Positions 9,471 to 63,869 of a stretch of 64,000 nt of DNA are shown here, in pieces. This DNA is from a virus (lineage: Duplodnaviria; Caudoviricetes). Each line of letters starts with the position of its first letter. Position 1 is the stretch's first letter. Location of the stretch: positions 1 to 64,000 of the IMG/VR virus record IMGVR_UViG_2630968317_000001. The stretch is one strand, 5' to 3'. Under the pieces are notes generated by a model. The model was not told the DNA's origin, searched no databases, and was given only the letters and a program-made list of their open reading frames with translations. A program made the position numbers and the translations under genes.

Positions 9471-10817
9471 ATGAACGGAGGCACTTTTACACCAGGTACA
9501 GAGAAAAAGCGTCCTGGCATTTACTTTAATTTTAAAACAACAGCAGAGCAGCGAATTACTTTAGGGGATCGAGGTACGGTGGCACTTCCTCTTGTGATGA
9601 GCTGGGGAGAGCCAAAAACCTTTATTTCCGTTTCAAATATGGAAGATTTAAATAAAAAGGTTGGACTCAACATTGATGAAAAGTCACTTCTTCTTTTCCG
9701 TGAAGCAAAGAAAAAAGCACAAACGGTCTTGCTTTACCGTCTAAATGAAGGAGAGCCGGCCAAAGCCGAAATTGCTGAAAATTTTGTCGTCACAGCAAAT
9801 TATGGCGGCCAAAAAGGAAATGAGATCACAGTACAAGTCGCAGAAAATGTACTTGATAGCACAAAACGCGATGTTATCACTTATCTTGGGACAGATATTG
9901 TGGATAAACAGGTCGTTACCGATGTCAAAGACCTTGTGAAAAACAAATACGTTCAATTTTCTGGTGAAGGTGCAGTCGTCATTACAGCTGGCGTGGCACT
10001 AAAAGGCGGGAAAAACGGCGTGGCAAGTGTCGCAGATTATACAGCTTTCCTAGAAGCAGCAGAAACAGAATACTTTGATGTCATTGCCCTTCCAGTCAAT
10101 AATAGTGAGCAATTAAAAGCAACCTTCGCTTCATTTATCGAACGTTTACGTGATAAGCAAGGACGTAAGGTGCAAGGGGTTGTGGCGAATTATGCAGCTG
10201 ACCAAGAAGGAATCATCAATGTGACAAGTGGTGTTGTACTCGAAGATGGAACAGAACTAACTCCTGCTCAAACAACAGCATGGGTCGCAGGGGCAAGTGC
10301 CGGAGCAAACTTTAATCAGTCACTCACCTTTGTTGAATACGAAGGAGCAGTCGATACATTAGAACGCCTTGACAATGATCAAGTAGAATACCGGTTATCA
10401 CAAGGGGAGTTCCTCTTCACCTTTGATGCGAGAGATCGTACCGTGAGTGTTGAAAAAGATATTAACTCCTTGACAAGCTTCACAACTGAAAAGAACCAGC
10501 AAATGGCGAAAAACAAAATCATTCGTGTACTTGATGCGATCAACAATGATTTAACATTCGAATTAAAAAATCTGATTAAATTACGCAAAGCCAATGGCAA
10601 TGACATTCCAGCATCAGATGATGGAGTGCAGCTTGTGAAAACACTGATTACCCAGTACCTCACACAGCTTCAAGATGGCAGCGGCATTACAGGCTTTAAC
10701 TCAGAAACAGATATCGTGATCGGCCTCAATGAAGATCGTGATGGATTTATCATCGATTTAGCGGTTCAACCAGTAGATGCAGCAGAAAAATTCTATTTCA
10801 ATGTGGAGGTGAAGTAA
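9471..10817 (+). CDS. xkdK: Contractile tail sheath
   Basis: MNGGTFTPGTEKKRPGIYFNF..PVDAAEKFYFNVEVK. Confidence 0.95.
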   Translation: MNGGTFTPGTEKKRPGIYFNFKTTAEQRITLGDRGTVALPLVMSWGEPKTFISVSNMEDLNKKVGLNIDEKSLLLFREAKKKAQTVLLYRLNEGEPAKAEIAENFVVTANYGGQKGNEITVQVAENVLDSTKRDVITYLGTDIVDKQVVTDVKDLVKNKYVQFSGEGAVVITAGVALKGGKNGVASVADYTAFLEAAETEYFDVIALPVNNSEQLKATFASFIERLRDKQGRKVQGVVANYAADQEGIINVTSGVVLEDGTELTPAQTTAWVAGASAGANFNQSLTFVEYEGAVDTLERLDNDQVEYRLSQGEFLFTFDARDRTVSVEKDINSLTSFTTEKNQQMAKNKIIRVLDAINNDLTFELKNLIKLRKANGNDIPASDDGVQLVKTLITQYLTQLQDGSGITGFNSETDIVIGLNEDRDGFIIDLAVQPVDAAEKFYFNVEVK

Positions 10818-34768: not shown

Positions 34769-35770
34769 ATGTCGATTCTTACGATTAATGGCGTCCTGAC
34801 AGACGTCGACATACGCGAAGAATTAGAGCGATTCGAATGGGATCGACCTACGTGGCACGCGGACCGTTTAACGGCGGCAAGCCCTTTTCGCGACGATCGG
34901 ACTCCTAGTTTTTACGTTTACTACGAAGACACTCCGACCGCAAAAGCCGGCTATTTCGGAGATAGCGGCACAGGAGAGCGCGGCGGCTTAATTAAACTGC
35001 TTGCGTTTCTGCGTGAAGAAACCGAGGAAGAGACGGCTTATTATCTCGCTGAGACTTATGGTACCGGCGAAGGAGAAGGACGTCTAAAACTCCGTGTTCC
35101 TCGTTTAAAAATCGTTGAGCCTAGACGTCCATTAGCCGAGACTTTACTGGACGGCATCAAGATCGGTCCGAACGCTTACTTAGCCAATCGCGGCATAAGC
35201 GAAGAAGTCCAGCGCAAAGCAGGCGTAGGCACGGTCGGACAAACGGTGGTGATTCCGTGGCGGCTGCCTAATAAGCGCCTGGCAAACGTGAAGTACCGAT
35301 CGACACACAATAAAGCGTTTTGGTACGCAAAAGGCGGATGGCCGATACGTGAATTAATCTACGGCATAGACACCGTTTATGCTAATCACGCCAAAGTAGC
35401 GGTTCTAGCCGAAGCTGAAATCGATGCGCAGTCGTGGCGTACGGCAGGCTTTTGCGGCATTGCGACAGGCGGCAGTAAATTTTCCGACCGAAAGGCGGAC
35501 ATAATTGCGCAGTCACCAATCGAATATTTAATAGTAGTATCTGACAACGACGAAGCCGGTGAGAAATTGCGGAAGGAGGTCGAGCTAAAGATGCGCGGCA
35601 AAGTCAGGCTTGCGCACGGTTATATAACGAAAGGGTACAAAGACGCAAATGAATTATTGATAGCGGAAGGTGAGGACGCTCTTAAGCGAGTTGTTGATCG
35701 TGCGGAGGCGGTAAGTATTAACATAAGGTTCGGGAATATCCGAACTTTTGGTCGGCGGAGGTTATCTTAA
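34769..35770 (+). CDS. DNA primase (TOPRIM)
   Basis: SPFRDDRTPSF, EAEIDA, SDNDEAG, KDANE. Confidence 0.9.
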   Translation: MSILTINGVLTDVDIREELERFEWDRPTWHADRLTAASPFRDDRTPSFYVYYEDTPTAKAGYFGDSGTGERGGLIKLLAFLREETEEETAYYLAETYGTGEGEGRLKLRVPRLKIVEPRRPLAETLLDGIKIGPNAYLANRGISEEVQRKAGVGTVGQTVVIPWRLPNKRLANVKYRSTHNKAFWYAKGGWPIRELIYGIDTVYANHAKVAVLAEAEIDAQSWRTAGFCGIATGGSKFSDRKADIIAQSPIEYLIVVSDNDEAGEKLRKEVELKMRGKVRLAHGYITKGYKDANELLIAEGEDALKRVVDRAEAVSINIRFGNIRTFGRRRLS

Positions 35771-36000
35771 CCCTCCGTGTTGCTACCGGATAAAGGACGC
35801 CAATTATATAAGGCTTCGACCGGGCAGTCGAGGCAGCGCGCTAAGGAATACGCCATTTCAACGTTAGGGATGTTCCTCAGCGAGATATAATCGGAAAGCT
35901 GCGTTTTTGAGATTCCGACCATTTCTGCGAGTTGAATAAGAGTATAACCACGTTTATAACACAGCTCCTTTATCCGGCAAGATACGACCGAATACTGCGA
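35767..36000 (-). CDS. YopS-like HTH regulator; expected start codon reads TCG
   Basis: CRIKELC..KTQLSDY..LDCPVEALY; RBS GGAGGTG and TGgTATAAT upstream. Confidence 0.7.
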   Translation of the reverse strand, partial: SQYSVVSCRIKELCYKRGYTLIQLAEMVGISKTQLSDYISLRNIPNVEMAYSLARCLDCPVEALYNWRPLSGSNTEG

Positions 36001-36077
36001 GATAAACACCTCCGCAAAGCAAAATGACGCGAGCTTTACGAAGGAAATTATACCACATAACCGCGCCGATTCCATCG

Positions 36078-36284
36078 TCATTCGGGCGGATTTGGTAGAA
36101 TGCGGACAACCTTTTCGATGGGTACGTCCAATTCGAGGCAGACGGCTTCTATAGTTGATAAGCTTACGGGCTTGTCCTCGTTAATCTTTGTTACTAGGTT
36201 CCTATGGATGACTTTATCCCTTAGAATTCCAGTTGTTAATCCTCTTTCAGCCAGGTAAGTTCTAAGTGGTTCATAACTAATCAT
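36078..36284 (-). CDS. Cro/C1 HTH_26 regulator divergent from aimR
   Basis: MISYEPLR..KINEDKPVSLSTIEAVCLELDVPIEKVV. Confidence 0.85.
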   Translation of the reverse strand: MISYEPLRTYLAERGLTTGILRDKVIHRNLVTKINEDKPVSLSTIEAVCLELDVPIEKVVRILPNPPE

Positions 36285-36315
36285 AAAAAAAAATCTCCTT
36301 TTTCCTTAAATTCCC

Positions 36316-36331
36316 GCACACAAAAGTGTGC
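36316..36331. promoter_or_regulatory. Palindromic operator GCACAC-AAAA-GTGTGC in the divergent promoter region
   Basis: Perfect 6-4-6 palindrome just upstream of the aimR extended -10 (TGtTATATT). Confidence 0.6.
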
Positions 36332-36377
36332 ATTTATGTTATATTATAAACAGAGAGAAGGCGCAAGTCTATAAGGG

Positions 36378-37553
36378 GTGTGTATTATGCAGTCAATTAA
36401 AGATGATTTTATCAACCTCAGAGAAAAATACGACTTAAGTATAACATGTATTTCCACAAAAACAGGAATTAACCAGGATGTTCTATATGAGTTTACTGAT
36501 AGTGGGTCTATCGGATTTAAACACCTGGTAACACTTTCGAAGTTCTTCTACAAAGAGAAGTATCACGAAATAATGCGTGAATGGTGTATGAAAATAGATT
36601 CTCCCGAGTGGCTGAAACAGGCTTTTGAGTATGCTGCGTTAAAAAGGGATTCAGATTTACTTGGGATGCTTCTTGAAAAAAGTAAAGAAGAACATGGTAT
36701 TAAACAATTTTTAGATATGTACGGATTAATTTTAGATTTCATGGTTGACCGAATTGATTTTAGAGAATTATCTGATAGAATGAGTAGTCTTAAAGTATCG
36801 AGTTCTAAAGATTTAAAAATCTTAAAGGACATATACTCATGCGTTTTTATGTATTATGATGACGAATTTATAGGAATCACAAAAAATGCCAGCTTAATCT
36901 ATAAAGAGATTGTTAAGTTGGGAAAACGAAGAGCATTTATAAAGGAAGCTTTTTCCTATCGTTTATCCGAAATTTTAGCACCGGCTTACCTACATCTTAA
37001 TGAACCTAAATTATGTATGTTTCACGCGAATGTGTTAGTTAGTACCGGACTCAATAATAAACATATATCAGACGGGAACTATTACATAGGGATGTGTAAA
37101 CTCCATGAGGATAAAACCTCGTGTCTGACTCATATGGAGAAAAGTCTTCATTTCGCGAAAGAAACGAAAGAACCATTATTAATAAGAGAAGCTACTAACA
37201 ATTTAAATATGGTTAAATCACTCTTTTCTTTTATAGAGGGTGGAAGTGCTCCTGTTTTCGCAGGTGAAAAAGAAAAGTTTCTTTTAGGAGGTGATGCAGA
37301 CTTTGTAGTATACTTCAACTACGTACGTAATAGAGAGATCAGTAATGTGTATGCTGCGTATAAACATTTCTTTGAAGAGATGAACTTTTTCTTCGCTTCT
37401 ATAGCAGCTGAAACACTACGTATGTTTGGGGTAGATGATATTCAGATTGATGTTCTTAAGTCATTCAAATTAAAATCAAAGGGAGATGTTGTTTATGAAA
37501 AAGATTTTATTGATGGGTTTTGTTTTAGGGGCACTAGTTGTATCGCTTCTTAA
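36378..37553 (+). CDS. aimR: AimR-family arbitrium peptide receptor (HTH + TPR)
   Basis: About 390 aa; N-terminal HTH, KQAFEYA, YRLSEILAPAYLHLN, FFFASIA; followed by a pre-peptide gene. Confidence 0.88.
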   Translation: MCIMQSIKDDFINLREKYDLSITCISTKTGINQDVLYEFTDSGSIGFKHLVTLSKFFYKEKYHEIMREWCMKIDSPEWLKQAFEYAALKRDSDLLGMLLEKSKEEHGIKQFLDMYGLILDFMVDRIDFRELSDRMSSLKVSSSKDLKILKDIYSCVFMYYDDEFIGITKNASLIYKEIVKLGKRRAFIKEAFSYRLSEILAPAYLHLNEPKLCMFHANVLVSTGLNNKHISDGNYYIGMCKLHEDKTSCLTHMEKSLHFAKETKEPLLIREATNNLNMVKSLFSFIEGGSAPVFAGEKEKFLLGGDADFVVYFNYVRNREISNVYAAYKHFFEEMNFFFASIAAETLRMFGVDDIQIDVLKSFKLKSKGDVVYEKDFIDGFCFRGTSCIAS

Positions 37554-37629
37554 CACTGAGGGGATGAAAATAGATAGCGCGAGCAGTGATAATGTAGTAC
37601 ATGTTAGCGAAATTAAAGTAGGCGGATAA
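37495..37629 (+). CDS. aimP: Arbitrium pre-pro-peptide, 44 aa: MKKILLMGFVLGALVVSLLNTEGMKIDSASSDNVVHVSEIKVGG
   Basis: RBS AAGGGAG, signal peptide, C-terminal EIKVGG; overlaps the aimR end; not in ORF track. Confidence 0.88.
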   Translation: MKKILLMGFVLGALVVSLLNTEGMKIDSASSDNVVHVSEIKVGG

Positions 37630-37634
37630 AAGAT

Positions 37635-37670
37635 CGGGCCAATCGGCCTTTTTCTTTTGTCTTTTTTTTA
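37635..37670 (+). terminator. Short terminator after aimP
   Basis: GGGCC-AATC-GGCCT followed by long T tracts. Confidence 0.6.
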
Positions 37671-37781
37671 ATATTTTTCGGAAAAGTCTAAAAAACTAAG
37701 ATTATCCAAAAACCACAAACTCCTCCTACCAAGATGCTAATATATGGTCATGGAAGAAAAATTATAAAAAACTTTAAATCA

Positions 37782-37816
37782 AATGTCCCGATTCATACGG
37801 ACCACATGCGACTGTA
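37782..37816 (+). promoter_or_regulatory. Phage motif copy 2
   Basis: AATGTCCCGATT-CATACGGAC-CACATGCGACTGTA ahead of the sigma-like gene. Confidence 0.8.
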
Positions 37817-37845
37817 TAAGTGTAAGGGACGGGAGGAGAAAGAAC

Positions 37846-38376
37846 TTGGATAAACAAAAATTTAATAGACTACAATTGGCCGCAGATTACGGAGCGATTC
37901 CGTATGTACAAAGAGAATCGCAACGAATCGCACACTTAGTTCCCGACGAAACATCGTTTGAGCAGCGGACCTTACTTTCGATAGGCTACTGGCTAGAACG
38001 ATACGAAGGCAATGGTCGCGATAAGAAAGCGCTGATCCAGCGCATTATCGTAAGGGAACGAAACAAGTACCTGAAGGCATCACGAAAAGAAGCGGCTTTA
38101 TCTATAGAAGGAATGCGAGACGACGGTAATGTCTCGTGGGAACCTCACGACAGTTTGGCGACTATCGATGACGGTTTGATGGCAAAAGAAAAGATCGCTC
38201 TGTTGGCGCAGAACGATCCAAGAAAAACAATGATCTTACAGTTTTGGAGCGAAGGATGTACGAATATGGACGAAATCTCCAAGTTGTTGGCGCAACATTT
38301 AGGAGGAAATTTCGAAGCACATCGCAAGTTCATCCGCCGTTTCCGTTTACACTGCCAGCGCGAACTAACAGCATAA
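37846..38376 (+). CDS. Divergent sigma70/ECF-like phage transcription factor
   Basis: TTG after GGAGGAG; two helical domains joined by a LSIEG linker; region-4-like DPRKTMILQFWSEG..EISKLLA..FIRRFR. Confidence 0.65.
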   Translation: MDKQKFNRLQLAADYGAIPYVQRESQRIAHLVPDETSFEQRTLLSIGYWLERYEGNGRDKKALIQRIIVRERNKYLKASRKEAALSIEGMRDDGNVSWEPHDSLATIDDGLMAKEKIALLAQNDPRKTMILQFWSEGCTNMDEISKLLAQHLGGNFEAHRKFIRRFRLHCQRELTA

Positions 38377-38415
38377 TCACGTATCTAGGCACGAGGGCTT
38401 CGCTACGCATTTTTA

Positions 38416-38444
38416 ATGATAATCGATTGAGAATCGAATTTCAA
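38416..38444 (-). promoter_or_regulatory. Antisense sigmaA promoter TTGAAA-17-TATCAT
   Basis: Read directly on the minus strand; no ORF downstream of it. Confidence 0.55.
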
Positions 38445-38511
38445 GCGAACACCATGCGAACAACCCTCCGTCTAGTACGTTTTACCTAAAATTCAAGGAG
38501 GCTAACGTACT

Positions 38512-38655
38512 ATGAAACAACCTACAAACGATTTCCCACCCGTAGTAAACATCCAAAAATTAACGGAATTACAATACGAAGGCGCACTAAATCACGAAGA
38601 TGATCCGGCTGACTTTTATCGTCCTGCAACTATTAAGGCGGTGCGCGTCGGATGA
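38512..38655 (+). CDS. 47-aa leader protein MKQPTNDFPPVVNIQK.. (not in ORF track)
   Basis: AAGGAGG RBS; ATGA coupling to the next gene. Confidence 0.65.
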   Translation: MKQPTNDFPPVVNIQKLTELQYEGALNHEDDPADFYRPATIKAVRVG

Positions 38656-39155
38656 ACTTTCAATTCGGACCGCACGCACGAAAAGCGCTTAAGGATCGTT
38701 TCGGAATCACGAACTATTACGCGTCTTATAAATGGCTGGCCGAACGCCTGTCTTCTTCGGTCGATCTTGGCGTCAGCGTAGATAAGAACGGCAAAGAAGC
38801 CCGCATGTATGGCGCAGGAGATGCGATTATATTATGCGATATTAACGAAGATTTTGTAATCACTGTACTGAAGCCGCGCCGGTTTAATCCGGTATTCGTA
38901 CGAAAGGTTTACCAAGCGGAAAAACAGTCCGTCGAAGAACGTATTCAATATAACGATCGGCTCTCGTCTGAGTTGCCGGATGAATTGTCGCATTGGCAAC
39001 GCGAGCTAAAACGCACACGCTCAGCCGCGAAGAAAAGGGCGATTCAAGCACGTATTAACGCGATTCAGGCACGCCTAGACGAACTACCGAACGAAACTTT
39101 CGAAGCTCGTCGTGATTTAACACGAGTAGCACAGGCGGTGGCTGCGTATGTTTGA
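38652..39155 (+). CDS. Hypothetical protein (RelE-like N-terminal pattern, coiled-coil C-terminus)
   Basis: HARKALKDRFGI..VITVL. Confidence 0.55.
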   Translation: MNFQFGPHARKALKDRFGITNYYASYKWLAERLSSSVDLGVSVDKNGKEARMYGAGDAIILCDINEDFVITVLKPRRFNPVFVRKVYQAEKQSVEERIQYNDRLSSELPDELSHWQRELKRTRSAAKKRAIQARINAIQARLDELPNETFEARRDLTRVAQAVAAYV

Positions 39156-39264
39156 CGACTTCCTAATGTAATTCGCATTCGTCGGCAGCATCGCGACCGT
39201 CATTATCGGCGGCATGTACTGGTCGCTTCTACGCGAAGAGAGACGGAATAAAGGCGGCGAATGA
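39148..39264 (+). pseudogene. Small TM protein interrupted by TAA at 39169
   Basis: MFDDFLM*FAFVGSIATVIIGGMYWSLLREERRNKGGE. Confidence 0.5.
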
Positions 39265-39404
39265 CCGCCGACGCTCGGAGAATACCGGGGCGTTCGTTAA
39301 GTAAAACTGTCGCGTCGCTATGCTGTGCGCTGGCGGCGTCTCGGGCGCAGATACCGGTGTTTTGCGAGGGTCAAACCCTAAAACAAATTAACGGAGGTAA
39401 TCGG

Positions 39405-40178
39405 ATGACAAAGTACACAAGCGGAGCTGACGCTCTAAACGCATTGAACGCAACAAATGAAGGAGGCGGCGGGGGTAATAGCGCCGAGTTTGCGAGCTTC
39501 AAGACGGGCACGGTTTATAAGGTACGCGTTATGAGTGCTTTCGATCTAATTCGCTTCTTTTCATACGGAATCTACAAGAAAGTAAATTCGTTCTCGGCGG
39601 CTAATCCGAGCACGCTAAACAAAAACGGCTTTCCTGAGTCGAATCTAACGTCATGGGATCGCGCGTGGAAGTACTACCAAGACCAAAAGAAAGCGGCTGC
39701 TGATCGAGGCGATGCCAAAGCGGAGGAGGCGGCTAAACAAGAAGCGGCTAAGTATCGCGTCAAAGAACGATATGCGCTCGGATTTATTAACCTTGAAACG
39801 GGCCAGCCGATCATCGTCGATCTTTCTAAAACGCAGGCCACGACGGTTCACGCGGTTATTAAAAAGCAGGAAAAGAAACTCGGCCGCATCGCGTTTGAAT
39901 TGGAGAAGTCTGGTTCAGGTACGAACACAGTAGTTTCATTAACGCCTCTTATCGATATGGAAGAAGACTTGACGGAAGCGGAACGTAAGCATTTTGCGGA
40001 TCAAGACGGTAAAGAATTCGATATGTCTTTATTTGACGGCTTAATTTACGAAGCTGATGAAAAGGAAATGATCGAAAACCTTGTCGCGGCCGGCTTTAAC
40101 TTAGCGCTGATCGGAGAATCGCTTGACGGTGGCGCAGAAGACGTGGAACTACCAGCCGGAGAAAACTTCGAATTTTAA
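39405..40178 (+). CDS. gp32-like single-stranded DNA-binding protein
   Basis: GGAGG RBS; acidic tail ending ENFEF; replication context. Confidence 0.7.
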   Translation: MTKYTSGADALNALNATNEGGGGGNSAEFASFKTGTVYKVRVMSAFDLIRFFSYGIYKKVNSFSAANPSTLNKNGFPESNLTSWDRAWKYYQDQKKAAADRGDAKAEEAAKQEAAKYRVKERYALGFINLETGQPIIVDLSKTQATTVHAVIKKQEKKLGRIAFELEKSGSGTNTVVSLTPLIDMEEDLTEAERKHFADQDGKEFDMSLFDGLIYEADEKEMIENLVAAGFNLALIGESLDGGAEDVELPAGENFEF

Positions 40179-40191
40179 GGAGGGCGCATAG

Positions 40192-40443
40192 ATGCGAGAA
40201 ATTAAAACGGAAGCGCAGACGTTAGATTTATCGAAAAAGGTGACCGTAGAAGTTTCGCTGGCGGAGTTGATTGTACTATCTGCCACCCTCGCCGAGATCG
40301 ATAGTGGCGTAGTTTACCATAACCTCGAATGGAATTATAGCGAGTCAACGATAGACGGTATTGATCGAATTGGAGTTTGTACGTCATCTATTGCGGATAA
40401 TATCGGCACTATTATTTCAGAACACATCCCGAAGGAGGACTGA
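40192..40443 (+). CDS. Hypothetical protein
   Basis: RBS AAGGAGG. Confidence 0.6.
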   Translation: MREIKTEAQTLDLSKKVTVEVSLAELIVLSATLAEIDSGVVYHNLEWNYSESTIDGIDRIGVCTSSIADNIGTIISEHIPKED

Positions 40444-40445
40444 GT

Positions 40446-40880
40446 ATGGCGCACAAAGAAGAAACGATCGGCAAATTCGCCGAACTGATCGCACGCGCTG
40501 CCTTAATGGCGGCCGGCTGGTCAGGCGTTAGTAAGCCGGAAACCGAAGAACCGTATGATATTCTCGCGGCCGAGCCGATCACGGGCGCAATCAAACGCAT
40601 TCAGGTCAAGACGATTCGTGACCGTCGGGATAGCCGCGGTTGTTTAACCGTCAGCGGACGGAAGAACACCGGTCAGGCTTATACGAAATCTGATACGGAC
40701 TATTTTATCGGAGTGCTGATCGAAGACAACGAGACTAAGGCGTATATGTTCGAATGTCGCAACATTACGGACTATTGGATGCCGCGTAAGAACGAAGGCG
40801 TCCGAGCATGGCACGAACTCAAACTTAACTTAGACCGCGCATACTTGGCTGCATTAGAAAACGAAGCGGAGGCGGTATAA
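40446..40880 (+). CDS. PD-(D/E)XK endonuclease
   Basis: GKFAEL..YDILA..RIQVKT..YTKSDTDYF. Confidence 0.78.
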   Translation: MAHKEETIGKFAELIARAALMAAGWSGVSKPETEEPYDILAAEPITGAIKRIQVKTIRDRRDSRGCLTVSGRKNTGQAYTKSDTDYFIGVLIEDNETKAYMFECRNITDYWMPRKNEGVRAWHELKLNLDRAYLAALENEAEAV

Positions 40881-41594
40881 ATGGCGGCATTAAAAGGCGT
40901 AAAGACGCTCGATATGGTGGACGGCGAAATTACGAAAGTTGCGTATGAAGGTGCGGAGTATGAACGTGTTGAGGGAGGCGCAAAGGTCGGCGATATCATA
41001 CGACTAACAGAAGAAGCTCGACGCGACGTCACCCCTGGCGGATTTTATACTGTAAGAGGAGTTATAGGCGCCAGAGTTCAGATAACAGACGACGTTAATG
41101 CGCCGCATCATTGGGACGAGGAATATTATGTTCCATTCCGCAAGAAGTACGTACGCCTAAAAGTCGGCGATTATGCGAAGGTGGTCGATTGGCCTAGTCC
41201 TTTTAAAGGAGCCGAAGGTGACTTGGTTAAGGTATTGACTGATGCCCGAAAATCTCGTCCGTTTCACTGCGAGCTTTTGACCGGAAATTACGTTGGAGAT
41301 AGAATTTGGGCACGTGAATCCGAACTAGTCCTCGCAACCGAAGCCGAAGTCGCCAAAGAAGCGGAAGCAAAACGATCCACCGAAGCGAAATGGGCGAAGA
41401 TCGGACGCAAAGTTGGCGAGTATCGTAAAGGCGATATTGTTCAATTTAAAGACGACTACGTAGCGATCGGAGTTGTCGAGGATGTCGGTGCCGATCTTCT
41501 AGGAGTACGCATGCCAGACGAAGCCTATCAGTGTCCGTACAAGAACAACGTAACGCTAATCACTCCGGTCGAGGCACGTTTTGACCGCAGCTAA
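40881..41594 (+). CDS. SH3/KOW-repeat phage protein
   Basis: AKVGDII, LKVGDYAKV, YRKGDIV. Confidence 0.65.
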   Translation: MAALKGVKTLDMVDGEITKVAYEGAEYERVEGGAKVGDIIRLTEEARRDVTPGGFYTVRGVIGARVQITDDVNAPHHWDEEYYVPFRKKYVRLKVGDYAKVVDWPSPFKGAEGDLVKVLTDARKSRPFHCELLTGNYVGDRIWARESELVLATEAEVAKEAEAKRSTEAKWAKIGRKVGEYRKGDIVQFKDDYVAIGVVEDVGADLLGVRMPDEAYQCPYKNNVTLITPVEARFDRS

Positions 41595-41770
41595 ATGCGC
41601 CTCCTGCCAAGCGCCCATTAACGAAGGCCAGTCCGCCGTTTACGACTCACTTTACGAAGTGTATTGTTGCGCCGGCGACTGCTGGTCGGAGTTTTATTCG
41701 GATAATGAGACGGCTCATAGACGGAAGTGGACGGACACCATCGAATTTTAAACGGGAGGGAGGACGCGAC

Positions 41771-44050
41771 GTGGAAATCAAGCCGTTAAAACTAAACGTA
41801 AATGCGGGCAAGGCGGCGCCGGCGACCGAAGTTGCTAAACGTAAGCAAGCGGCCAACGCCGTCGAGCCAATCGAGGATGCCTGGCGTCGCATCTACGCTA
41901 GCAAACTTAGCGACTCGGACCGGCAGAAATTAGACGAAGTCAAGGCGGCTTTGGAGGACGGACGCTTGGCGCGCGATCCTTCTGACTGCGTTAATAAGGC
42001 GGGCAAGCCGAAGAAGTTCAGCAAGGCGGAAGCGCTGCGACTTTGGAAAACGGTGCAAGCGCAGGTCCGCGAGGAAAAGCTACGCAAGATGGTCGAGGAA
42101 ACGCCCGTCAACTACGAACTTATTACGACTGAACACGAACTTGCGAATTTACTCGACGATCTTAGGAACGAAGAGATAATCGCAGTTGATACGGAGACAA
42201 CTGGCGTAGACGTGTACACGGACGTTATTGTCGGTATTTCACTAACTTTACCTCGAACTGACCGGCACGTATATCTACCGGTTGATCACGTTGGTTGCGA
42301 GCAGCTTAGCCGAGAGTACGTACTTAGCGAATTAGCGGTCGTATTTAACGACGATAAGATCGGAAAGGTCCTGCACAACGCCATATTCGATATCGCAATG
42401 CTACGGAGACACGGGCATGACCTCGAAGGCGTCGTGTGGGATACAATGACCGCGATGCATATTCTTAATGAGAACGAAGGAGATCGAAGTACCGGCGGCG
42501 CTGGTTCGTTTAAATTAAAAGACTTGGCGCCTAAATATTTAAAAACGCCGTCAGACACCTACGACAGTCTATTCGGAAAGAATGCGCAATTTAGAGAAGT
42601 TCCTTTAGATATCGCGCTAGTTTATGCTGCGAAGGATACGGAGTTAACTTGGAGACTTTACGAATTTCAGCGAAAACATATGGCGCAAATGCCGACGGTC
42701 TTAGAATACTACGAAACCGTGGAAGTGCCGTTGCTATATGTAATTGTAACCTTAGAAGCCAACGGATATGTACTCGACTTGGACTTCGCTAAGGAATACG
42801 GAGAAAAGTTGCACCAACGTGCCGAAGAATTACGGGAAGAATTAGTCGCAGAGTTGACGCCGTTTCATGAAGGGGACGAACAGATAAATCTAAATTCGAC
42901 ACATCAAATGCGCCCTGCACTCTCGAAATCGATCGGCAAAGAACTTCCTAATATGGATGCGAAGAAAACGCTGAAACCGTTAAAAGATAGTCACGATATC
43001 ATTGCGAAGCTCTTGGAATACCGTAAAATCAGCAAGTTGAGTGGGACATATATCGATACTTTACCGACTAAACAAAACCCTACAACTAAGCGATGGCACT
43101 CACGATTCAACCCGATGGGAACCGTAACAGGGAGATTCAGTTCCGGTAAGGATGAAGAAGACAAGACGCAACAGGGATTTAATGTGCAGAACCAACCGCC
43201 GGAAGCGCGACCTATGTTTATACCTCCGAAAGGGAAAGTTCTTGTAGGCGCCGACTTCAAAGCCCAGGAAATTAGATGCGTAGCGTATTTGTCAGAAGAA
43301 CCCGTTCTAATCGACGCATTCTTAAAAAGCCTCGATCCTTACGCAACGATGGCGTCCAACTTCTATAAGCGACCTTACGCGGATGTTTATAAGAATCCCG
43401 ATGGATCCGACACTAAAGAGCGAAAGCAGATGAAAGTAGTGTGGCTAGCGACGCTATACGGTATGAGCGACTATTCTCTCGCAGACATGCTCGGAACTTC
43501 TAAGAAAGACGCTACGGCGTTTAAGGAAGAGCTATTCGGAAGTATGCCGAAGCTATCTTCGTGGCTAAAAGAGAACGAAAACTTTGTTCGTGAGTATGGG
43601 TTCGTATGGGCGGATTTAAAAGCACGTAAGCGAAGACTGCCCGACGCGAAATTACCTAGAAAAAACATTCCATTCGGAAAGTGGAACGATCCTAAATACG
43701 ACGCTGCTAGAAAACACAATTCGAGTATTAACCGAGCCTTACGTCAGGCGACAAATGCGCGTGTTCAAGGTTCGTCATCTATTCAAACAAAAGTGACGAT
43801 GATTAAGGCGCATGAGTATTGCGGGAACAAACCGGGATGGAAGTTGTGGTCATCGGTACATGACGAACTAATTTTCGAAGTCCCGGAAGATTTTACACAA
43901 GAAGAAGCGCAAGATATTCGCGATATTATGCTTAATTCGTATCGCTGGGGAGACGTTGTGCCTAACGGAACTGATATCGAAGTTATGCGGAAATGGGGAG
44001 AAGGCGTGCCCTTAGACGACTGGTTTAAAAATAAGGAGGAGATTAATTGA
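41771..44050 (+). CDS. polA: Family A DNA polymerase with 3'-5' exonuclease
   Basis: DTETTG, HNAIFD, YAAKD, TVTGRFSS, ADFKAQEIR, KVVWLATLYG, VHDEL. Confidence 0.95.
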   Translation: MEIKPLKLNVNAGKAAPATEVAKRKQAANAVEPIEDAWRRIYASKLSDSDRQKLDEVKAALEDGRLARDPSDCVNKAGKPKKFSKAEALRLWKTVQAQVREEKLRKMVEETPVNYELITTEHELANLLDDLRNEEIIAVDTETTGVDVYTDVIVGISLTLPRTDRHVYLPVDHVGCEQLSREYVLSELAVVFNDDKIGKVLHNAIFDIAMLRRHGHDLEGVVWDTMTAMHILNENEGDRSTGGAGSFKLKDLAPKYLKTPSDTYDSLFGKNAQFREVPLDIALVYAAKDTELTWRLYEFQRKHMAQMPTVLEYYETVEVPLLYVIVTLEANGYVLDLDFAKEYGEKLHQRAEELREELVAELTPFHEGDEQINLNSTHQMRPALSKSIGKELPNMDAKKTLKPLKDSHDIIAKLLEYRKISKLSGTYIDTLPTKQNPTTKRWHSRFNPMGTVTGRFSSGKDEEDKTQQGFNVQNQPPEARPMFIPPKGKVLVGADFKAQEIRCVAYLSEEPVLIDAFLKSLDPYATMASNFYKRPYADVYKNPDGSDTKERKQMKVVWLATLYGMSDYSLADMLGTSKKDATAFKEELFGSMPKLSSWLKENENFVREYGFVWADLKARKRRLPDAKLPRKNIPFGKWNDPKYDAARKHNSSINRALRQATNARVQGSSSIQTKVTMIKAHEYCGNKPGWKLWSSVHDELIFEVPEDFTQEEAQDIRDIMLNSYRWGDVVPNGTDIEVMRKWGEGVPLDDWFKNKEEIN

Positions 44051-63327: not shown

Positions 63328-63869
63328 ATCGTGATGCTCTCGTATGCGACCGAAATCTCGTCGGCTGTGATACCGATGTATTTCAGCGTATCTTTTTCGG
63401 ATGAATGACCGAGAATCGCCATGATCCGGTCGACTGTGATATTCATTTCATACAAGCGGTAGCCGAACGTTTTTCTAAGCGTGTGAGTCCCGATGTTGCC
63501 GATCTTTTGAGCGATTTCGGCACGTTCGGCGGCTTCGTTTAGAATGCGATAGGCCTGAACGCGGCTGATCGGCTTGGCGCCCTTGCGGCTGGCAAATACG
63601 TAGTCATCTTCGGCACCTTCGAGTTCATTGACGAGCTTTATGACGGATGCTGAGAACGTAATGACACGCGTTTTCTTGCGCTTGGCCTCGGTTATTTTAA
63701 GAGACGTTTGGCCGCGAAGATCGCCGACCTTAAGTGAAAGTAAATCGGAGATTCTCAGCCCAAAAGCCGTCCCTAGTTGTAATAACAGACGGTCGCGCCC
63801 CGGTTTGAGGGCATTTTTTAGTTTATTGAAATCGCGTTTACTTTTAATCGGATTCACTTCGTTAGCCAT
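63324..63869 (-). CDS. Small catalytic-domain tyrosine recombinase (resolvase-like)
   Basis: GLRISD, K, HTLRKT, LGH, Y all present; about 181 aa, no arm-binding domain. Confidence 0.9.
   Translation of the reverse strand: MANEVNPIKSKRDFNKLKNALKPGRDRLLLQLGTAFGLRISDLLSLKVGDLRGQTSLKITEAKRKKTRVITFSASVIKLVNELEGAEDDYVFASRKGAKPISRVQAYRILNEAAERAEIAQKIGNIGTHTLRKTFGYRLYEMNITVDRIMAILGHSSEKDTLKYIGITADEISVAYESITI

Follow-up and report, generated by a model that had tools for sequence, protein, structure and literature searches.

A conserved leader stem and a predicted antisense RNA gene at the entry to the replication genes of an arbitrium-carrying Bacillus prophage

Arbitrium phages are a model for the viral decision between lysis and dormancy, and in most of them the output of the system is a small antirepressor protein. 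The window analysed here, the first 64,000 of the 88,161 bases of the IMG/VR provirus record IMGVR_UViG_2630968317_000001, covers nearly all of an integrated Bacillus siphophage, one of a group that is arranged differently: a sigma-like gene lies behind aimR-aimP, and a conserved RNA leader with a predicted countertranscript stands at the entry to the replication genes. This raises the question of what is encoded in the 135-base spacer between the sigma-like gene and a 47-amino-acid (aa) open reading frame (ORF), with which the block of replication genes begins. Computational analysis of this spacer and its relatives revealed two alternative folds of the leader, conservation and covariation of its long stem (P1), and conservation of a promoter and a terminator on the opposite strand. 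The locus holds a real cis-antisense regulatory unit that has apparently not been described before. Its parts are as follows (coordinates of the window; MFE, minimum free energy; nt, nucleotides).

37783..38376, plus strand: sigma-like gene, an ORF downstream of aimR/aimP
38184..38219, minus strand: antisense terminator-like hairpin (38219..38192, 11 pairs) with a U-run, inside the sigma-like coding sequence
38184..38409, minus strand: predicted antisense RNA of about 225 nt, its start inferred from the position of the -10 element
38347..38376, minus strand: 13-base-pair hairpin of the antisense RNA, in which five G.U pairs would be mismatches on the plus strand
38379..38403, plus strand: 5′ arm of P1 (anti-sequestrator), present in the MFE and centroid folds and covarying; it contains segments that resemble the start region and the Shine-Dalgarno sequence
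38416..38444, minus strand: predicted sigma-A-type antisense promoter (-35 TTGAAA, 38444..38439; 17-base spacer; -10 TATCAT, 38421..38416)
38423..38437: P2, a palindrome or inner hairpin (UCGAUU-GAG-AAUCGA) situated between the -35 and -10 elements of the antisense promoter
38445..38462: tandem direct repeat GCGAACA-N4-GCGAACA, abutting the -35 element and upstream of it in the minus sense
38456..38480, plus strand: 3′ arm of P1, with CCCUCC (38464-38469) and UAGUACGU, the alternative partner of the start region
38495..38514, plus strand: translation start signals of the 47-aa ORF (AAGGAGG, 38495-38501; right arm of the start-codon hairpin, 38504-38512; ATG, 38512-38514)
38512..38655, plus strand: 47-aa ORF, the first gene past the element, matching phrog_30530 at 3e-12

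From these parts we infer the following chain of events. In the free leader P1 would form and tie up the 3′ strand that is complementary to the start region, leaving the ribosome site of the 47-aa ORF open. The backward promoter, located in the apical loop of P1, would produce an RNA of about 225 nt that is read from the minus strand and ends at the terminator inside the sigma-like gene. Over its first approximately 30 bases this RNA is perfectly complementary to the P1 5′ arm, which it would capture in the cell, best on the nascent leader. The released 3′ arm would then close over the start codon and translation of the 47-aa ORF would fall; in some relatives, the pyrimidine tract of the 3′ arm would cover the Shine-Dalgarno bases instead. 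Because the stop of the 47-aa ORF shares four bases with the start of the next ORF (38652), expression further downstream would probably fall as well. The antisense RNA may also lower expression of the sigma-like gene, through overlap with its 3′ part and through a promoter that opposes incoming transcription. A preliminary description of this locus, made from the bare letters, had the switch shut the whole SSB/polymerase/RNR operon in lysogens, as a second layer of control under arbitrium; the reach over the operon and the links to lysogeny and to arbitrium are conjectural. We propose the full antisense-controlled leader switch tentatively, with slightly less than even confidence.

Copies of the spacer were gathered by way of the upstream protein and with two DNA patterns taken from opposite ends of the element. 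BLAST matched 7 of 49 genomes of the genus and a covariance model 9 of 91 genomes of the family, and the core pattern retrieved 58 stretches of metagenome contigs, with eight full-length members and five partial matches of another kind. The collection comprises 34 distinct full elements in about nine lineages, drawn from Bacillus phages, prophages and metagenomes. The spacer is more conserved than the coding DNA on both sides, which holds for both P1 arms as well as for the start region, and in copies that follow another type of upstream gene the P1 5′ arm marks the precise point at which similarity sets in. Between the upstream stop codon and this arm lie 3 to about 20 nt, depending on the relative, so coupling to ribosome termination is not a conserved feature. 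Every one of the 34 distinct copies carries the promoter in the same orientation, which rejects an invertible promoter. Rfam gave no match at E ≤ 1 on either strand of 36000-41000.

P1 is composed of four helices of 5, 6, 5 and 5 pairs (21 pairs) and is found in both the MFE and the centroid structure of 38370-38520, pairing 38379-38403 with 38456-38480 exactly where the preliminary description had seen a long stem. The fold of 38370-38520 reaches -34.1 kcal/mol (z score -2.37; 6 of 200 shuffles as good), and the element alone (38376-38484) reaches -31.8 kcal/mol (z score -3.72), which none of 200 shuffles equalled. The minus strand of the element folds equally well (-35.4 kcal/mol, z score -3.76), and energy alone therefore does not tell the strand. 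P1 with at least 12 pairs appeared in the free MFE structure of 29 of the 34 distinct copies, and RNAalifold recovered it with 17 pairs, four of them changed on both sides. In a model-fitted alignment of 28 copies, 86.9% of the P1 cells were paired, as compared to 79.7 ± 0.7% in column shuffles (reached by 0 of 500), and 13 of 27 pairs were changed on both sides (1 of 500 shuffles); slid controls, in which the partner was moved by 1-3 columns, paired at 30-42%.

Because this alignment leans to the model and the copies are related, single events weigh more than these totals. In copies resembling that of phage 268TH007, CUAGGC:GUCUAG has become CUAGGU:ACCUAG and UUCGC:GCGAA has become UUCGU:ACGAA; L055 has C:G in place of one U:A pair in the outer helix, along with rebuilt middle helices; and metagenome copies have exchanged CGGAGGG:CCCUCCG for CGGAAGG:CCUUCCG. 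An inserted U pairs the bulged A in L052 and an inserted G pairs the bulged C in L053, and such pairing-restoring insertions and deletions favour an RNA helix over protein-binding repeats. Wobble cells outnumber A.C cells in P1 by 36 to 18, a modest sign for the plus strand, and both arms can occur together in a plus-strand transcript only, since the backward promoter lies between them. The inner hairpin P2 keeps its pairing in several variants (TCGCTT/AAGCGA, TCTGTT/AACAGA and TCCGTT/AACGGA) and is lost in L052, L056, L084 and L094, where the promoter survives. We conclude with good confidence that P1 is a functional RNA structure.

The minus-strand promoter TTGAAA-17-TATCAT matches 10 of 12 consensus positions and is the best-scoring of seven promoter-like sites in 37500-39300, where 2.5 ± 1.7 were expected. 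A single match of this kind is weak alone, and its weight comes from conservation in the relatives: all 34 distinct copies match the consensus at 9 or more of its 12 positions on the minus strand, the best spacer being 17 bases in 33 of them and 16 in L056, with hexamers that vary among TATCAT, TATTAT, TATGAT, TACAAT and TAAAAT. The promoter that the preliminary description had placed in the loop is thus a constant part of the element. Plus-strand matches in this stretch reach at best 5-9 of 12, at positions that shift among the copies, and we rejected a promoter reading forward from the spacer.

The tandem repeat next to the -35 element is the most conserved part of the whole element, and its second copy doubles as the innermost P1 helix. 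It occurs nowhere else in the window. The conserved blocks likewise do not recur there, which excluded a repeated phage promoter or operator; TTCAAGCGAACAC with up to three mismatches gave 13 matches versus 22 expected, again no recurring operator, and TAGTACGT is somewhat enriched genome-wide without clustering elsewhere. An extracytoplasmic-function-like reading of GCGAAC...CGT as a sigma-factor site fails because the spacing differs by three bases among the relatives. A near-identical cassette of repeat and promoter was also found in unrelated, GC-richer metagenome contigs, as six copies at five distinct loci (L111:1829-1907; L122; L071; L115:9246-9325; L119:8543-8623 and 10393-10482, the last two within 1.8 kilobases). 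Here the tandem repeat and a -35 element are followed by a 16-base spacer, TATAAT and, after about 35 nt, GGAGG and an ORF in the direction of the promoter; these ORFs support both the promoter reading and its direction. The ORFs (83-140 aa) matched no Pfam family, and the cassettes found no match in phage and plasmid collections.

The predicted transcript also has a defined end. In all 32 copies with enough upstream sequence to be searched, a terminator-like hairpin with a U-run, a feature that the preliminary description had not listed, follows the predicted minus-strand start by 178-268 nt; the opposite strand of the same stretch has such a site in 3 of 32. Three different hairpin sequences serve as this site, one for each type of sigma-like gene, indicating that the feature has been kept or gained independently of the coding sequence. 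In the window-type terminator 98.3% of 121 cells pair (alignment A8), 22 of them as wobbles that are possible on the minus strand only, and two pairs have changed on both sides, partly by way of amino-acid changes in the overlapping gene. The predicted RNA would open with a tail of about 33 nt that can pair with the P1 5′ arm, followed by the 13-base-pair hairpin, further structure and the terminator; beyond the tail it would run antisense to the final 190 nt or so of the sigma-like gene, in agreement with the complementarity claimed for it earlier. The 13-base-pair hairpin shows one double change from G:C to A:U, produced by synonymous changes, in L004, L007 and L011. With an opposite-strand promoter and a terminator that defines the 3′ end, two marks of a cis-antisense RNA gene are present, and we consider it very probable that such a gene exists.

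We then consider the fold that the antisense RNA would impose on the leader. The segment 38473-38481 pairs perfectly with 38504-38512, and this hairpin over the ribosome-binding site and start codon, likewise proposed in the preliminary description, is part of the MFE structure of 38404-38520, from which the 5′ arm is omitted. It extends to UCUAGUACGUU/AACGUACUA-U-GA, placing the AUG in the stem and AAGGAGG in a 22-nt loop, and locally amounts to -12.4 kcal/mol (z score -2.29; 5 of 200 shuffles as good). When the first 37 nt were masked, the start region paired with the 3′ arm in 32 of the 34 copies, versus 8 of 34 without masking. When the leader was co-folded with the 5′-terminal 70 nt of the antisense RNA, the complex reached -104.5 kcal/mol versus -53.1 kcal/mol for the two apart, and the leader took up the start-codon hairpin; whether the 5′ arm was blocked by masking or by the antisense RNA, the 3′ arm closed over the start codon. 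The CCCUCC tract of the 3′ arm has GAGGG in the 5′ arm as its P1 partner, and since the 3′ arm holds both this tract and the segment complementary to the start, the 5′ arm mimics the Shine-Dalgarno sequence and the start region together. We rejected the idea that the antisense RNA pairs directly with the start region, since 295 of 300 shuffles were at least as good.

When masked, L064 and the short form L065 pair Shine-Dalgarno bases with a pyrimidine tract in the 3′ arm (CCUUCC and CCUUCGG, respectively), and masked L036 retains just a weak stem of five pairs. The short form, L065:1501-1620, is an element of about 120 nt in which P1 is cut down to CCGAAGG/CCUUCGG; it retains P2, the tandem repeat and a backward promoter, TTGTAA-17-TAAAAT, and its 3′ arm is complementary to Shine-Dalgarno bases, not to the start codon.

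Assembled Logan contigs from public RNA runs cover the locus in related prophages. In two runs of one study, X15 and X16, whose prophage is about 93% like the window, a contig of 42 and 41 nt, respectively, lies at 38360-38401 with a depth of 23,158 (X15) and 23,955 (X16), approximately 2000-fold that of its flanks; the depth is blind to strand. The upstream gene stands at 39-53x in the same runs, a contig over 38372-38656 at about 10.5x and the genes beyond at about 9-10x. The abundant piece covers the P1 5′ arm together with the final 17 bases of the gene before it, where the antisense RNA had been placed. The abundant stretch has no second copy in a host genome that carries a related prophage, which ruled out a host RNA as its source. 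The boundaries of the 41-42-nt species agree neither with the predicted antisense start nor with its terminator, and one possibility is that it is a processed 5′ fragment of the antisense RNA. A contig from another study (X20) spans 38240-38656 and is compatible with co-transcription of the two genes, and among the joints listed for four RNA runs none at the element changes strand.

Several observations weigh against the switch as proposed. The P1 covariation comes from an alignment fitted to the structure and from related copies, and with about nine lineages the counts overstate the number of independent events; the margin of wobble over A.C cells is also small. The start-codon hairpin is absent from masked L036 and L064, and it is paired in 95.1% of cells versus 94.4% in shuffles (18 of 500 reach this value), which leaves no informative covariation; its near-invariant right arm moreover formed part of one search pattern. 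The pairing with the Shine-Dalgarno bases, as read from the alignment, does not covary either. Of the covariation expected across relatives, P1 thus delivers its part, whereas the start-codon hairpin is conserved but is paired as often in shuffled columns. P1 is also about 15 kcal/mol more stable than the alternative, and a leader that has already folded would therefore resist invasion. The RNA contigs, for their part, are blind to strand, ends and level. On its right (38401/38400) the abundant piece stops about 8 nt short of the start position predicted from the -10 element, on its left it breaks off within the antisense-hairpin loop, and the contig over the terminator region is only 39-53x deep; a piece so short and a terminator region so shallow indicate that the full RNA of about 225 nt is not abundant in these runs. 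The switch is accordingly partly supported: its logic is conserved and energetically coherent, and selection of the inhibitory fold as a structure is not proven.

The same antisense RNA could have the sigma-like gene as its chief target, pairing with the 3′ part of the message in the manner of lambda OOP RNA and acting by duplex cleavage, by head-on interference with the arbitrium-driven transcript or by both; P1 would then merely be a stabilizing or processing hairpin and the start-codon hairpin incidental. The RNA does overlap about 190 nt of the gene versus about 30 nt of the leader, the promoter-terminator pair is kept in three sigma-like gene types, so that antisense cover is conserved, and the start-codon hairpin neither covaries nor occurs in L036 and L064. 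X15 and X16 yielded no contig over 38229-38359, which would fit duplex removal, although this gap may be an assembly effect and, like the small word shares in the listed runs, is not used as evidence here. However, the conserved module begins exactly at the P1 5′ arm whichever gene precedes it, conservation of both arms and the start region far exceeds that of the coding DNA around them, and masking brings out the start-codon hairpin in all but two copies, with L064 and L065 pairing Shine-Dalgarno bases. We regard the sigma-like gene as a not very likely chief target, and the two roles are mutually compatible. P1 might otherwise be an RNase III-type processing site that splits the sigma-like from the replication messages without any switch, as could be suggested by its position between two cistrons, by the imperfection of a long stem whose 21 pairs are interrupted by internal loops, and by a sharp depth boundary at 38401/38402, within the innermost helix. 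The partner strand at 38456-38480, however, is only about 10.5x deep in the same runs, and neither the embedded promoter-terminator unit nor the conserved complementarity between 3′ arm and start region would be explained, which makes a mere processing site highly improbable.

Another reading takes the element as a DNA signal, an operator and promoter complex in which the arms, the palindrome and the GCGAACA repeats bind regulators of the backward promoter. It draws on the repeat adjacent to the -35 element being the most conserved part, on the same promoter layout before genes in unrelated contigs, on P2 lying exactly in the promoter spacer and on the innermost P1 helix reusing the repeat; both strands fold equally well, and a dimer operator would show symmetric changes too. 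Against this, the arms are 25 bases long with bulges, the insertions in L052 and L053 restore pairing and not spacing, the arms stand at varying distances from each other (relatives have a three-base insertion), and wobble cells exceed A.C cells by 36 to 18. P2 is missing from four copies that retain the promoter, and the tandem repeat, being unique in the window, is not a multi-site operator of this phage. The DNA-signal reading of the whole element is therefore improbable, but for the repeat and P2 it could hold alongside P1. The location between primase and polymerase genes and the combination of a structured RNA with a countertranscript would also suit an RNA-primed replication origin with antisense copy control, ColE1-like, in a phage with its own family-A polymerase, and RNA-based prophage origins exist in mycobacteriophages (PMC7157519). 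Yet the source is an integrated provirus according to its record and has tyrosine integrases, and the conserved complementarity is directed to a ribosome site instead of a primer-template hybrid; we consider such an origin barely conceivable.

Returning to the leader switch, its closest parallels lie in different phages and plasmids. Lambda OOP RNA is antisense to the 3′ end of cII and, like the RNA predicted here, is a short temperate-phage countertranscript whose promoter lies just past a lysis-lysogeny regulator and which reads into the 3′ end of that regulator to its own terminator. Unlike OOP, the first approximately 30 bases of the present RNA also match the conserved structured leader of the next gene, so that its output would be a refolding of the leader, and the regulator is sigma-like and stands behind an arbitrium module. 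The sar RNA of P22 and the c4 RNA of P1/P7, which acts on icd-ant, have immunity functions; they too are phage antisense RNAs that arise within an operon and block the next or a small leader cistron together with the genes coupled to it, but they pair with the ribosome site itself, whereas the action here would go through capture of an anti-sequestrator.

The preliminary description had likened the device to plasmid antisense attenuation. In pT181, pIP501 and pAMbeta1 a countertranscript likewise binds the 5′ part of a leader with mutually exclusive folds, and the strand set free forms an inhibitory hairpin; two exclusive folds, with a predicted antisense RNA against the upstream strand, characterize the present leader as well. 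The defining switched intrinsic terminator is not: no plus-strand terminator-like site lies between 38376 and 38512, the TTTT that follows the 3′ arm in the window is not kept in relatives, and the inhibitory hairpin has no U-run and ends in the start codon, which it covers. The comparison consequently holds for the working principle and not for membership, and the unit is better seen as an analogue acting on translation, set in a phage early operon and not before a plasmid rep gene. In the IncI-alpha and IncB plasmids, Inc RNA blocks a long-range interaction that keeps the ribosome site of repZ or repA usable, with coupled leader ORFs, which resembles the present case; here, however, the interaction is a plain nested stem and not an activator pseudoknot, and there is no relation by sequence or family.

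If the mechanism is true, it would be a translational counterpart to plasmid antisense attenuation within a phage early operon, and it would add a second, RNA-based control point that is directly testable in cultured Bacillus subtilis phages of the group; the element would also offer a compact and portable antisense-controlled expression switch for Bacillus. Because the promoter sits inside the loop that it would control and faces arbitrium-driven transcription, the two directions would exclude each other and could form a bistable toggle. The 5′ arm is near-unchanged across three sigma-like genes, so the RNA of a prophage, possibly in its form of about 42 nt, could close the leader of incoming relatives. 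An RNA-level immunity or commitment device of this kind, combining a bistable toggle with cross-immunity independent of a protein repressor, nevertheless seems unlikely to us.

Whether the gene before the leader encodes a sigma factor, as its name in the preliminary description implied, depends on its relatives. Homologues in phages KLEB27-1 and 268TH007 are annotated in GenBank as 'RNA polymerase sigma factor', and a language-model search of the Atlas led to a Sigma70_r2 cluster (score 0.96), which we treat as a lead only. The window's own protein found no sequence match in Pfam, NCBIfam or the PDB, and so the name is a putative one, drawn from annotation of the relatives, the Atlas lead and gene position and not from a family match. 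The gene likely starts at TTG 37846 and encodes 176 aa: residue 22 of the ORF is where the Atlas record begins, the phrog_24888 match covers residues 22-197, and the KLEB27-1 annotation fits the same start. In relatives, one extra base near 37843 lets the ORFs run further upstream in a different frame.

In related phages different small proteins take this position, and one type scores 27.2 bits against Sigma70_r2 (cut-off 24); profile comparison with hhalign detected no homology between the window's protein and these positional equivalents. Three sequence-unrelated types of sigma-like gene (those of L019, L020, L024, L034, L036, L051 and L056 versus that of the window) thus precede the same spacer, each with its own antisense terminator-like hairpin, a pattern of exchanged modules whose breakpoint coincides exactly with the 5′ arm.

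The element is undescribed in the literature searched. The announcement of phage 268TH007 (PMC9476937, main text without supplements) makes no mention of sigma, arbitrium, AimR or antisense. Extended arbitrium modules consist of aimR-aimP-aimX with convergent aimC/aimL (bioRxiv 10.1101/2025.11.23.689978); for the common layout an antisense transcript was once proposed as the output, and that paper concludes that the pairing is unimportant. The leader and antisense element is not described in the available part of this preprint. The present locus shares aimR and aimP with such modules and is otherwise of unusual layout: a co-directional sigma-like gene behind aimP replaces the small aimX with convergent helix-turn-helix (HTH) genes, and the HTH pair lies upstream of aimR and diverges from it. 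Nearly all long ORFs found in a scan of the window are on the plus strand, and the surrounding features are these.

34769-35770: primase gene
35767-36284, minus strand: two HTH genes
36378-37553, plus strand: aimR (Pfam AimR, 1.1e-19)
37486/37495-37629: aimP-like ORF, overlapping the end of aimR; its peptide ends in ...SEIKVGG
37636-37649: terminator-like site between the aimP-like ORF and the sigma-like gene
41705-44050: family-A polymerase gene, with class Ib ribonucleotide reductase genes further on
63372-63809: tyrosine integrase gene

Immediately behind the 47-aa ORF, a 167-aa ORF (38656-39138) is swapped for about 500 unrelated bases in the relatives of runs X15-X17, according to the table of joints, and behaves as an exchangeable gene cassette. 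In the RNA-run contigs a depth of about 600x is reached at 36085-36137, the 3′ part of the HTH pair, in a related prophage whose contig is mostly unlike the window; a lysogen expressing its repressor region would fit this depth. Another backward promoter-like match (GGGACA-17-TATAAT, 10 of 12) lies on the minus strand at 37761-37789, at the start of the sigma-like gene.

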